64,000 nucleotides of DNA, from positions 192,001-256,000 of the forward strand of contig CAWEXO010000014.1 in NCBI GenBank assembly GCA_963813025.1, read 5' to 3'. The stretch comes from an uncultured Verrucomicrobiae bacterium. GTDB lineage: Bacteria > Verrucomicrobiota > Verrucomicrobiia > Chthoniobacterales > JAFAMB01. A program made the position numbers. Below, in pieces: positions 41,501-42,885 of this stretch. Numbering within the stretch: position 1 is the stretch's first letter; each line of letters starts with the position of its first letter.

Positions 41501-42885
41501 TACGCGTGCGGTACGACTGATTTCGGAAGGGATGTGTTTCCCGCTTCCTGTTCCGACCAGGCCGGCTGCACGAAAGCCAGGAACGAGAGAAAAAACCAGA
41601 GTCGTAGCATGAGCGAAAGGCAGAATAGTGGCCATTTTCGCCGGCGGCCAACGGAAAACCATGTTGGCCTTGGCGGCATTTTCCTTGCGCAGTGCTTCGC
41701 GGTAGTCAATTCGTATGTCTCCCGATGTCCGCTACGAGTGAGTACACCGAAAGCTTGAATCAAAAGATTCTGGCGGTTTCCGAAGATACTATCCAGGGCT
41801 TCAGCACGGAACCATTTCTGGAAATTGCGCGAGCGGCGGGCCTCGAGGAGGACCTGGTGCTGGAACGAATCCGGCTTATGCTCAGGGCCGGCACGATCCG
41901 CCGCGTTCGGCAAACCTTGCTGTCCACTAACCTGGCCCAGGGTGCGTTGGTCGCCTGGCAAGTTCCGCAAAGCCGTTTGGATTCGGCGTTCGATTTCATG
42001 TTTAAAGAGGACCCGTTTTCAGGTCATGTCGTGACCCGATCGACCGATTTCCGCAGTCGCGGGAGTGAGTTCAAACTCTGGACAACGGTAAAAGTTCCGC
42101 AAGGATATAGTCTGGACGGGCATATTGCTCTCCTGGCCGGTCGTGTTGGGGCTTTGGCCGTGCGCACCATGCCGGCCAAGGGAATTTTTACCCTCGGGGT
42201 GGGTCACGTTCGGCGACAGACCATCTCCCCGGGCGCCAGAGCAACGGAACCGGCGCGCATGCTGCCAACCAGGATTGTTCAGTTGAGCCCGCTCGAGTGG
42301 AGGGTTTTAACGGCGCTGAAACGTGAGTTCACCGAGGACGAGATCACGTCGCATCCTTGGCTGAGACGCGCCCGTGAGATTGATTTGCCGGCCGAAACTT
42401 TCCTTGAAATCGCCGAATCGCTGAGCCAACGAAAAATCCTGGGACGCTTTTCGACTTTTCTTGAGCATGTTAAAGCGTCGCCGACCGGCGTCCGGGTCAC
42501 CCGATTCAATGCGTTGTTTCACTGGGCGGTGCCTGTCGGTATGGAAGGGAAAGCGGGCGCCGAAATCGGCCGGCACGAGATTCTGACCCATTGCTATTGG
42601 CGGGAGGCCGGCCCGGAGTTCGGCAATGTCAATATCATGGCGGTGGCTCACGGGACCGAAAAACAACGGTTGCTCGATCACAAGGCGGCGATGGATGGAC
42701 ACCTGGCTGCTTGCGGAATTCCCGTTTCCTACACCAACGTTTTCTGGGGCGGTCGCTCTGAGATCAAGCCTTCCGAGATCTCACCCATCATTTATGAACG
42801 TTGGTTGAAGTCGATGGAAACCGAAAAGGTCTAAATGGTCGCGAGTCTCAAGACTCGGACCATTTAGACCTTTTCGGTTTCCTCA

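Follow-up and report, generated by a model that had tools for sequence, protein, structure and literature searches.

A candidate single-chain sirohaem decarboxylase and a probable sirohaem route to haem ended by ChdC in Chthoniobacterales

Excerpts of a 2026 review distinguish three routes of haem synthesis and assign the conversion of didecarboxysirohaem to coprohaem to AhbC (PMC13564367). A 2021 paper, in the part available, terms the Ahb route archaea-specific (PMC8529089). A sirohaem route ended by a ChdC-type enzyme is already known from haloarchaea, which keep AhbC. According to excerpts of the study concerned, Haloferax volcanii carries Ahb genes and a ChdC-domain protein (PitA), is devoid of uroD, cgoX, and cpfC, and uses a ChdC-type last step in air (PMC5746218), which makes it the closest published precedent. 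ChdC is likewise the last enzyme of the coproporphyrin-dependent pathway of Firmicutes and Actinobacteria. For the order Chthoniobacterales, passages of a 2015 genome paper report that hemE, hemD, hemY, and hemH are missing in a 0.9-Mb endosymbiont and in Chthoniobacter flavus, and leave the gap unexplained (PMC4607532). Apart from that remark, nothing relevant was present among the literature matches listed.

Here, we analyzed a gene in a 64,000-nucleotide stretch of DNA (the window) from a member of this order, a soil verrucomicrobium. The encoded protein is probably a single-chain sirohaem decarboxylase that acts in a sirohaem-route haem synthesis ended by ChdC, with the acetate step performed by an enzyme other than AhbC. 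It is most similar to NirDL of Hydrogenobacter thermophilus (4CH7/4CZC), a fused sirohaem decarboxylase with the same single chain of two helix-turn-helix (HTH) and ferredoxin-like modules; the two proteins align over their full length, with a histidine on the second strand of each module. However, they share only 21% identity, and NirDL serves haem d1 synthesis, whereas cd1 nitrite reductase genes were not found here. The reaction proposed is that of the Desulfovibrio AhbA/AhbB heterodimer (4CZD/4UN1), but one fused gene takes the place of two. Unlike the archaeon H. volcanii, which in the available text keeps ahbC and ahbD and has ChdC fused to an ABM-like domain, the present hosts are bacteria in which AhbC is missing and ChdC is a plain Firmicutes-type protein. 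In contrast to the coproporphyrin-dependent pathway, the host genome has no HemE, CgoX, or CpfC, and coprohaem would have to come from sirohaem. What emerges is a variation on an established pathway in which the enzyme for the step from didecarboxysirohaem to coprohaem is missing.

A two-module protein of the NirDL/AhbAB type

The open frame on the plus strand extends over positions 41692 to 42834, and homologue alignments begin at residues 1 to 7 of the 369-amino-acid (aa) product that starts at the ATG (Table 1). The first-pass annotation had described the same open reading frame (ORF; g04254) as having AhbA and AhbB halves below the curated cutoffs, and its figures were reproduced exactly: the NCBIfam AhbA model gave 54.2 bits over residues 26 to 159 (equivalog cutoff, 140), and the AhbB model gave 83.9 bits (cutoff, 125), so that neither half attained an equivalog-level score. 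Pfam recognized one NirdL-like_HTH domain and two AsnC_trans_reg2 stretches.

Table 1. Features of the fused decarboxylase homologue in the window
Feature	Position	Strand	Basis
Fused two-module NirDL/AhbAB-type sirohaem decarboxylase homologue (predicted), 369 aa plus stop	41725..42834	+	ORF list, NCBIfam, PDB, AF2, Foldseek
Alternative GTG start	41692	+	ORF list
HTH module of first half, residues 27-59	41803..41901	+	Pfam PF22451 NirdL-like_HTH, 37.2 bits; model helices 30-38 and 42-55
First ferredoxin-like (AsnC-type) domain, residues 73-154	41941..42186	+	Pfam PF17805, best stretch 73-154
His101 codon, second strand of first domain	42025..42027	+	4ch7 alignment; strand 99-106
Second half (HTH and ferredoxin-like domain), residues 206-319	42340..42681	+	NCBIfam NF040707, 83.9 bits
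His289 codon, second strand of second domain	42589..42591	+	4ch7 alignment; strand 287-293

An AlphaFold (AF2) model of the protein (pLDDT, 89.9) contained two HTH and ferredoxin-like (AsnC-type) modules that form one barrel, with strands of the first ferredoxin-like domain at residues 71 to 79, 99 to 106, 118 to 125, and 145 to 155 and with helices and strands of the second half spanning residues 211 to 310. The PDB sequence match was 4ch7 (E value of 2.8e-15). When the model was compared with known structures using Foldseek, 4ch7 (2.4e-21) and 4czc (1.1e-20) were matched over query residues 14 to 318, with TM scores of 0.67 to 0.81. NirDL alone ranked at full length; AhbA/B structures reached about 5e-5 with one half covered. 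Each module bears a histidine on its second strand: His101 pairs with His93 of the 4ch7 chain (a position counted by hand in the alignment), and His289 pairs with the histidine of the "SHCYQR" motif. His101 was invariant in 15/15 members of one orthologue set and 42/42 of a larger one, and His289 was invariant in the same 42. Excerpts of a published paper place the sirohaem-binding histidine on beta2/beta6 (PMC4835899), the source of the binding or catalytic role that we assign to these two residues. On the basis of sequence and model, the 369-aa ORF is real and is predicted to be a full-length, two-module sirohaem decarboxylase of the NirDL/AhbAB type. Two long relatives were rejected as informative fusions: P0006 resembles the product of an internal duplication, and P0125 resembles a chimera.

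Relatives of the protein are annotated in their source records as "DNA-binding Lrp family transcriptional regulator," and the first-pass annotation had raised the possibility of a NirDLGH-like regulator. The AsnC-type Pfam domains and the two scores below the AhbA/B cutoffs are compatible with an Lrp/AsnC-type transcription factor, perhaps one that senses tetrapyrroles, without enzymatic activity. However, Lrp/AsnC regulators were matched by the model at 2.9e-4 at best, against approximately 1e-21 for NirDL at full length; both beta2 histidines are invariant; and the gene tracks ChdC and the absence of hemE rather than a regulon. It is, moreover, the sole AhbA/B candidate alongside AhbC and AhbD in relatives (see below). 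A regulatory role is therefore very improbable.

Haem genes of the host genome

The host genome is 80% complete, comprises 16 contigs with several frameshifted genes, and was searched in six frames. BLAST searches with annotated relatives located HemA-HemC-SUMT/HemD, HemB, and HemL as well as three COX1 loci, CtaA, and CtaB. SUMT is fused to HemD at C2:9004-10509. CbiX exceeded the NF002671 cutoff (290 versus 258), and the gene after it carries DR2241 and Fer4_23 domains; the two entry components of the Ahb pathway, SUMT and a class II sirohydrochlorin ferrochelatase, are thus represented. ChdC exceeded the NF008913 equivalog cutoff (264.3 versus 253 bits), and has Geobacillus HemQ as its nearest relative (181 bits); the alignment also reveals the tyrosine motif "FYPM." Every one of these genes, including the DR2241 Fe-S gene beside CbiX and the genes for haem-copper oxidases and haem o/a synthases, had been claimed in the first-pass annotation, and all were recovered.

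The absences that it reported also stood. URO-D and ferrochelatase searches in six frames gave 0 and 0 matches in the host genome. The best match of the AhbC model (44.8 bits) was MoaA, and the best AhbD score (45.6 bits) also fell on MoaA; 15 of the 16 radical SAM matches were named, none of them as AhbD or NirJ. A dehydrogenase of the SirC type was likewise missing, with the TIGR01470 cutoff reached in 0/5 genomes (G000, G007, G012, G032, and the AhbC-bearing G027). CgoX searches (TIGR00562) yielded N-terminal matches of ≤41 bits, with 0/4 of the AhbC-less genomes tested being positive. Upstream of ChdC, the coproporphyrin-dependent set of HemE, CgoX, and CpfC was therefore not found. One statement had to be corrected: a weakly AhbC/D-like radical SAM gene described as not seen in the host does exist there, at about C13:433.9-434.9 kb, but is split over three frames. 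This 16th radical SAM match is orthologous to a G007 gene of 344 aa and scored 35 to 36 bits against the AhbC/D-like proteins of G027 (36 bits against the AhbD-like one); the closed 0.9-Mb genome G032 contains nothing that corresponds to it.

Because the solved structure nearest to it is that of a NirD-like protein from haem d1 synthesis, the decarboxylase could be imagined to serve that pathway for cd1 nitrite reductase. However, cytochrome d1 (PF02239; NirS/NirF/NirN) had no real match in 5/5 genomes, two of which gave 20-bit beta-propeller noise, and NirJ was absent among the named radical SAM proteins; the probability of this role is practically negligible. Canonical AhbC/AhbD or HemE/HemH might also have been overlooked through assembly gaps, frameshifts, or divergence. 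The incompleteness of the host genome, its frameshifted genes, and the broken radical SAM gene that had escaped the first-pass annotation speak for such an oversight. Nevertheless, the six-frame searches found the same absences in the single-contig genomes G032, G046, G055, and G077, URO-D and AhbC were also absent in the closed genome G225 of another family, and the broken gene is only distantly similar to the G027 proteins and lacks a G032 counterpart. An oversight of this kind is extremely improbable.

Distribution in the order and retention in reduced genomes

We surveyed 81 genomes of the order, the records of which include "Candidatus Udaeobacter" and the cultured C. flavus. The decarboxylase was matched in 63 genomes (62 after a 58-residue fragment in G052 was dropped), and ChdC was found in 65; 61 genomes had both, 1 had only the decarboxylase, 4 had only ChdC, and 15 had neither, counts that overstate the evidence for co-occurrence because kin are not independent. 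True URO-D and ferrochelatase were confined to the same 9 genomes. Six hemE/hemH genomes (G031, G035, G045, G057, G085, and G087) are devoid of the decarboxylase and ChdC, and 9 genomes have no late haem genes at all; at genus level, the contrast is sharpest between G092 and G031/G045 and between G094 and G087. An AhbC-like gene was detected in 17/81 genomes and in 0/8 of the host's family. The 61 genomes with both decarboxylase and ChdC comprised 12 with an AhbC-like gene (314 to 501 bits), 3 with hemE and hemH, and 46, including the host, without AhbC/AhbD-like radical SAM genes or hemE and hemH; one of the 46, G073, has a 77-bit match. In the three genomes that combine the decarboxylase and ChdC with hemE and hemH (G028, G037, and G088; hemY between them was confirmed in G037 only), the decarboxylase looks redundant.

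The AhbC-bearing relatives provide clues about the function of the fused protein. A second radical SAM gene adjoins the AhbC-like gene in 11 of the 12 genomes and lies on another contig in the remaining one (G030). The pair in G027 consists of a TIGR04053/AhbD-like protein (319 bits) and a NirJ1/AhbC-type protein (481 and 479 bits). In G027, G030, and G053, the AhbB model matched the two halves of the fused orthologue and otherwise only Lrp-like proteins at 22 to 29 bits. The fused orthologue is thus the sole AhbA/B-family gene in relatives with tandem AhbC-like and AhbD-like genes. In another family of the class, 15/15 genomes carry the orthologue and AhbC and are without URO-D. As in the Ahb pathway, the orthologue therefore occurs together with AhbC in 12/61 genomes of the order and throughout the sampled sister family. 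The departures from that pathway are that the host and 45 other sampled genomes have neither AhbC nor AhbD, that ChdC replaces AhbD (or accompanies it, in the 12 genomes), that SirC is missing, and that the hosts are aerobes with haem-copper oxidases. In a tree of 42 orthologues, AhbC-bearing and AhbC-lacking genomes were interleaved, and no alignment column separated the two groups at 80% agreement, which suggests the same function with or without AhbC. Identity within the clade was 47 to 73% across families, and 97 columns were invariant across the 42 genomes. Tetrapyrrole genes were not found near the decarboxylase in the neighborhoods of 80 loci.

Two closed 0.9-Mb genomes, G032 and G046, retain SUMT-HemD, CbiX, DR2241, the decarboxylase, ChdC, and a haem-copper oxidase. 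Their SUMT domains scored 145 and 152 bits, respectively, and neither genome has a sirohaem-dependent reductase of the NIR_SIR type. G032 further keeps HemA, HemC, HemB, a HemL-like gene, COX1, CtaA, and CtaB, and its six radical SAM genes encode MiaB, HemW, MqnC, MqnE, LipA, and a KamA-like protein. Retention of the whole gene set without a sirohaem-dependent reductase argues for sirohaem as a haem intermediate in these two genomes.

These data bear on two further explanations. The hosts might make no haem de novo and import haem, coprohaem, or coproporphyrin, with the early genes serving sirohaem synthesis only and the fused protein and ChdC acting in salvage or elsewhere. The sequence is compatible with uptake, the NIR_SIR proteins of the host genome need sirohaem, and HemW, a haem chaperone, is present in 80/81 genomes. 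On the other hand, the closed genomes without NIR_SIR kept SUMT-HemD, CbiX, the decarboxylase, and ChdC despite strong gene loss; the joint presence and joint absence of the decarboxylase and ChdC across the order and the many invariant decarboxylase columns also speak against import, which is decidedly unlikely. Alternatively, in a coproporphyrin-type route, the fused protein would replace HemE, another oxidase would replace CgoX, CbiX would load iron into coproporphyrin, and ChdC would end the pathway. CbiX, like CpfC, is a class II chelatase; the fused protein is divergent from canonical AhbA/B, and ChdC is the canonical coprohaem decarboxylase. Such a route would close the AhbC gap, since SUMT methylation would lie outside haem synthesis and no AhbC would be needed, but it would still require another oxidase, as CgoX was not detected. 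Against it stand the SUMT domains kept in G032 and G046 without a NIR_SIR client, the orthologues that must supply didecarboxysirohaem as the only AhbA/B-type gene beside AhbC/AhbD-like genes, and the lack of any residue distinguishing these from AhbC-less orthologues. We consider it quite unlikely.

Proposed route and the acetate-removing step

In the sirohaem route that we favor, glutamyl-tRNA would be converted to uroporphyrinogen III by HemA, HemL, HemB, HemC, and HemD and then to precorrin-2 by the SUMT fused to HemD. Precorrin-2 would become sirohydrochlorin by spontaneous oxidation or through a dehydrogenase other than SirC, and CbiX, with the DR2241 Fe-S protein, would form sirohaem. 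The fused enzyme, combining the functions of AhbA and AhbB in a NirDL-like architecture, would remove the carboxyls from the acetate groups at C12 and C18 of sirohaem, yielding 12,18-didecarboxysirohaem. An enzyme other than an AhbC-type radical SAM protein would produce coprohaem, from which ChdC, using H2O2, would generate haem b. The observations are the presence and absence of genes, the fold, the conservation of the two histidines, the joint occurrence of genes, and their survival in reduced genomes; from these we infer which substrate and product the fused enzyme has, in what order the steps run, and that a non-orthologous enzyme removes the acetates. The core reading holds and is strengthened by the relatives bearing AhbC and AhbD, the closed 0.9-Mb genomes, and the NirDL-like fold with its histidines. 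Of the first-pass proposal of a sirohaem route rebuilt for life in air, the conversion of sirohaem to didecarboxysirohaem by the fused protein and the terminal position of ChdC stand; the AhbC substitute and SirC were not found, which makes the rebuilding for air an interpretation.

The search for an enzyme acting on didecarboxysirohaem covered 395 ORFs of G032 shared with the host, 359 of them of 140 to 560 aa within one stretch; it left out about 190 shared ORFs and every unshared one. No AhbC substitute emerged from the Pfam/NCBIfam scan of this set, and Atlas look-ups of two proteins gave no lead. The amidohydrolase beside DR2241 was rejected because G057, G085, and G087 carry it without having either decarboxylase or ChdC, whereas G081 and G092, where the two occur together, gave no match to it at E ≤ 1e-20. 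This TRZ/ATZ protein is aminofutalosine-deaminase-like (130 bits versus a cutoff of 320), and the presence of MqnC and MqnE makes a role in the futalosine pathway likelier. DR2241 itself is also carried by G087 and, in part, by G031 and G045, and thus tracks CbiX and sirohaem rather than this haem route. HemW is the only tetrapyrrole-related radical SAM protein of G032, but an orthologue in 80 of the 81 genomes renders its distribution uninformative.

Among other candidates, a GspS-like ligase of 461 aa was rejected on its occurrence in 5/5 respiring genomes without decarboxylase and ChdC, and a GuaB3-like protein was dropped as housekeeping because it is the sole IMPDH homologue in G032 and the host. 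MbfA, FolC, HolA, RsmI, SdhC, LptE, and FtsQ-like proteins were identified and likewise set aside. A 3-Cys LarE-like protein was not universal and was missing from G032, and the Gfo/Idh/MocA gene product encoded upstream of CbiX was only 22% identical to the nearest G032 protein.

Sirohaem entry and ChdC exit thus coexist without AhbC in a large order of aerobic bacteria. Tentatively, we suggest that the Chthoniobacterales and two or more other verrucomicrobial families may possess a non-AhbC acetate-removing enzyme, possibly oxygen or peroxide dependent, unless the decarboxylase, HemW, or ChdC has this as a second activity; in combination with ChdC, it would constitute a fourth way of completing haem b, operating in very abundant soil bacteria and in a genome the size of that of a nematode endosymbiont. 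Should our reading of the pathway be correct, there is a new tetrapyrrole enzyme to be discovered, the label "Lrp family regulator" that automatic annotation gives to this gene family is mistaken, and pathway-based prediction mislabels abundant soil bacteria as haem auxotrophs.

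The fused decarboxylase gene and its product

The open reading frame yields a 369-aa product from an ATG at position 41725, a start consistent with the alignments of relatives, which begin at residues 1 to 7. The first-pass annotation had described this frame with AhbA and AhbB matches below the NCBIfam cutoffs, and both were recovered, on residues 26 to 159 (54.2 bits; cutoff, 140) and 206 to 319 (83.9 bits; cutoff, 125), respectively. Pfam searches delineated a NirDL-type HTH and two AsnC-type ligand-binding stretches. The top sequence relative of solved structure was NirDL, a fused sirohaem decarboxylase (4ch7; E = 2.8e-15, query residues 14 to 318). 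An AlphaFold2 model obtained from 15 input sequences (pLDDT 89.9, pTM 0.84) had 4ch7 and 4czc as its top Foldseek matches (E = 2.4e-21 and 1.1e-20; full length, TM 0.67 to 0.81), followed by AhbA/B chains covering one half (E of ~5e-5) and by Lrp/AsnC regulators at 2.9e-4 or worse. The NirDL histidines align with His101 and His289, each on the second strand of its own ferredoxin-like domain in the model, which is where the sirohaem-binding histidine sits (excerpts of PMC4835899). We assign the gene to the sirohaem decarboxylase family as a new member; its nearest homologues are in Chthoniobacterales, Candidatus Udaeobacter, Chthoniobacteraceae, and Terrimicrobiaceae.

The gene is solitary, flanked by a divergent M1 aminopeptidase gene and a P-II/Amt pair. 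The ammonium transporter (Amt) gene, adjoining an intact P-II gene, is split over three reading frames by two frameshifts (Pfam Ammonium_transp positions 17 to 129, 130 to 233, and 226 to 331) and is either a pseudogene or an assembly indel error. An insertion sequence has left a truncated remnant, 125 aa of an IstB ATPase of the IS21 type (profile positions 67 to 181 of 238).

Haem genes in the genome, the order, and the phylum

The genome (G000; 4.42 Mb, 16 contigs) is rated 80% complete. Its gene content was as first annotated, i.e., ChdC, CbiX, the DR2241 protein, and SUMT-HemD were present and six-frame searches gave zero URO-D and ferrochelatase genes; further genes placed were HemB, HemL, CtaA, CtaB, and COX1 (three loci). 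The protoporphyrinogen/coproporphyrinogen oxidase model gave N-terminal matches only (at most 41 bits) in this genome, in which neither SirC nor a cytochrome d1 family protein was found. Fifteen of its 16 radical SAM matches were assigned names (MoaA, MiaB, HemW, MqnC, RimO, BioB, PA0069-family, MqnE, RlmN, LipA, ThiH, QueE, ArsS, HpnH, and an MSMEG_0568-family piece). The other is the weakly AhbC/D-like gene previously reported as absent, which is present but fragmented across three frames. Its orthologue in the relative G007 is 344 aa long (57 to 86% identity in three pieces). The broken gene has an N-terminal extension of ~100 aa ahead of its CxxxCxxC motif, matches a relative's AhbC/D-like proteins at 35 to 36 bits only, and has no counterpart in the reduced genome G032. 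One COX1 gene is broken into three ORFs, and a NIR_SIR gene, which contains a TGA, is also split; given the frameshifted COX1, NIR_SIR, Amt, and radical SAM genes, the 80% figure may be an underestimate.

Locations of the features discussed (window positions unless a contig or genome is named)
Feature	Location	Strand	Location in G032	Model match
Decarboxylase open frame	41692-42834	+		
P-II gene	42886-43221			
Split ammonium transporter gene	43221-44623	-		
IstB fragment	45530-45904	-		
ChdC	C1:114461-115279			NF008913, 264 bits (cutoff 253)
LarE-family protein	C1:115350-116228			TIGR00268, 265 bits
HemA-HemC-SUMT/HemD	C2:9004-12462			
CbiX	C5:112509-113327			NF002671, 290 (cutoff 258)
DR2241/Fer4_23 protein	C5:113324-113965			
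DR2241/Fer4_23 and amidohydrolase pair	C5:113324-115185		804497-806331	
GuaB3-family protein	C5:122147-123331		543123-544355	TIGR01304, 423 bits
CysJ-like protein	C14:75790-76971		93613-94755	TIGR01931, 411 bits
Broken NIR_SIR gene	C11:555763-556966			
Broken radical SAM gene	C13 ~433900-434930	+		
Broken COX1 gene	C14:373885-375474			
Decarboxylase remnant	G052:C33:24175-24348			
Split decarboxylase	G074:C4:366067-367135			

Among 81 genomes of the order, all but G000 at least 90% complete, true URO-D (>350 bits) and ferrochelatase occurred in the same 9. ChdC was found in 65 and a decarboxylase match (60 to 72% identity) in 63, or 62 once a 58-residue, stop codon-containing fragment (G052) was left out. 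Both were present in 61, the decarboxylase alone in 1, ChdC alone in 4, and neither in 15, 6 of which have hemE and hemH. Three of the 61 (G028, G037, and G088) also have hemE and hemH and may have two haem routes; all three carry a hemN-like gene, and the intervening hemY was confirmed in G037 only (339 bits). The G052 remnant, interrupted by a TAG in a genome that lacks ChdC too, and a decarboxylase whose halves form adjacent frames in G074 look like a decayed and a split form of the fused gene, respectively.

A strong AhbC-like gene (314 to 501 bits, below the cutoff of 650) was present in 12 of the 61, with a second radical SAM gene beside it in 11 and on a different contig in G030. In G027, one member of the pair reads as a TIGR04053 protein (319 bits to the AhbD model) and the other as NirJ1/AhbC-like (481 and 479 bits). 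Within three AhbC-bearing genomes, the AhbB model matched just both halves of the fused protein, plus Lrp-like proteins at 22 to 29 bits; the fused protein is therefore the sole candidate to supply AhbC there. Orthologues from 16 AhbC-bearing and 26 AhbC-less genomes were interleaved in the tree and shared 97 invariant columns, and no column separated the two groups at 80% agreement. We thus saw no sign that the decarboxylase changed upon AhbC loss. AhbC and AhbD look like a dispensable anaerobic option, repeatedly lost or gained, beside an always-present route. Neither AhbC nor hemE/hemH was found in 46 of the 61, including all 8 genomes of the family of G000 and the single-contig genomes G032, G046, G055, and G077; G073, also among the 46, has one 77-bit radical SAM match.

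The fused orthologue was detected in 27 of 151 genomes sampled across the phylum. Within the same class, one family has it in 15/15 genomes (38 to 61% identity), each of which has AhbC and none of which has URO-D. Two other families have it in 4/4 and 1/1 genomes with AhbC and URO-D both absent, so the form lacking AhbC is not confined to one order. Of the genomes tested for ChdC, all three without AhbC (G135, closed G225, and G216) and one of the two with AhbC had it. AhbC-like genes (E ≤ 1e-60) occurred in 35 and URO-D (E ≤ 1e-80) in 44 of the 151, which indicates that the sirohaem route is common in Verrucomicrobiota.

Reduced genomes and the AhbC step

We worked from the complete G032 sequence (915,884 bp, one contig). 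It retains a hemA-hemC-SUMT/HemD operon syntenic with that of G000, HemB, a HemL-like gene, CbiX, DR2241, the decarboxylase (61% identical), and ChdC (56% identical), along with COX1, CtaA, CtaB, cytochrome c, and SdhC. SUMT domains scored 145 bits in G032 and 152 bits in its sister G046, and no NIR_SIR protein was found in either. Precorrin-2/sirohaem synthesis, kept under strong gene loss without a known sirohaem client, points to sirohaem as a haem intermediate in these two genomes, with the scan limited to ORFs shared with G000 and with the genomes being kin and hence not independent. This retention is also the strongest argument against two other explanations of the gene set, namely, that haem is acquired by uptake rather than made de novo and that the fused protein acts on uroporphyrinogen in place of HemE.

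G032 has six radical SAM genes (MiaB, HemW, MqnC, MqnE, LipA, and KamA-like), which excludes an AhbC-type enzyme there. A scan of 395 G032 ORFs shared with G000 (Pfam for all, NCBIfam for some) left no further tetrapyrrole-related protein; conserved function-unknown proteins of 543, 347, 269, 242, and 190 aa remained. As AhbC substitutes, the amidohydrolase and a GspS-like protein were ruled out by distribution and a LarE-like protein is missing from G032; HemW, also a candidate, is universal.

Among 39 sequences of the LarE-family PP-loop protein, three cysteines are conserved (C116 and C119, 97%; C196, 100%). The gene for this protein immediately follows chdC in the same orientation at 38 of 80 loci (L168 to L247), Chthoniobacter flavus included, and is divergent beside chdC in G000. 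DciA and FolB, at 43 and 31 loci, respectively, are neighbors conserved to the same degree, so the linkage may reflect inherited gene order. The DR2241/Fer4_23 gene adjoins, often overlapping, a TRZ/ATZ-type amidohydrolase gene in most genomes of the order, followed by an S11 peptidase gene in G032 and G000. A CysJ-like protein with the FAD/NADPH half only (profile positions 229 to 597) is retained in G032 despite the lack of a sulfite reductase haemoprotein; it may serve as a ferredoxin reductase of general use or as the electron partner of DR2241. Both genomes have the GuaB3-family "IMP dehydrogenase-related" protein (78% identical between G032 and G000) as their sole IMPDH homologue, in the presence of GMP synthase, and this protein may be the working IMPDH of the clade.

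A probable sirohaem-dependent route to haem

Three haem pathways are described, and AhbC forms coprohaem from didecarboxysirohaem (2026 review, PMC13564367, in part). Haloferax volcanii has nirDL/nirGH, ahbC, and ahbD together with the ChdC-domain protein PitA and relies on PitA under aerobic and on AhbD under anaerobic conditions (portions of PMC5746218). A 0.9-Mb nematode endosymbiont of the order and C. flavus were reported in 2015 to be missing hemE, hemD, hemY, and hemH, for which diverged analogues were suggested (partial text of PMC4607532). Our literature search, with subscription journals largely outside it and supplements excluded, found, among the papers listed, no published proposal of a sirohaem/ChdC route without AhbC in these taxa.

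The original observation stands, in that the fused decarboxylase is real, URO-D, ferrochelatase, and AhbC/AhbD are absent, and ChdC is present. The pathway drawn from it, i.e., haem made through sirohaem and didecarboxysirohaem and finished by ChdC, is well supported by comparative genomics but incomplete because one enzyme, possibly also SirC, has no identified gene. It would represent a sirohaem-dependent pathway in a new form, open to direct test in a cultured relative.
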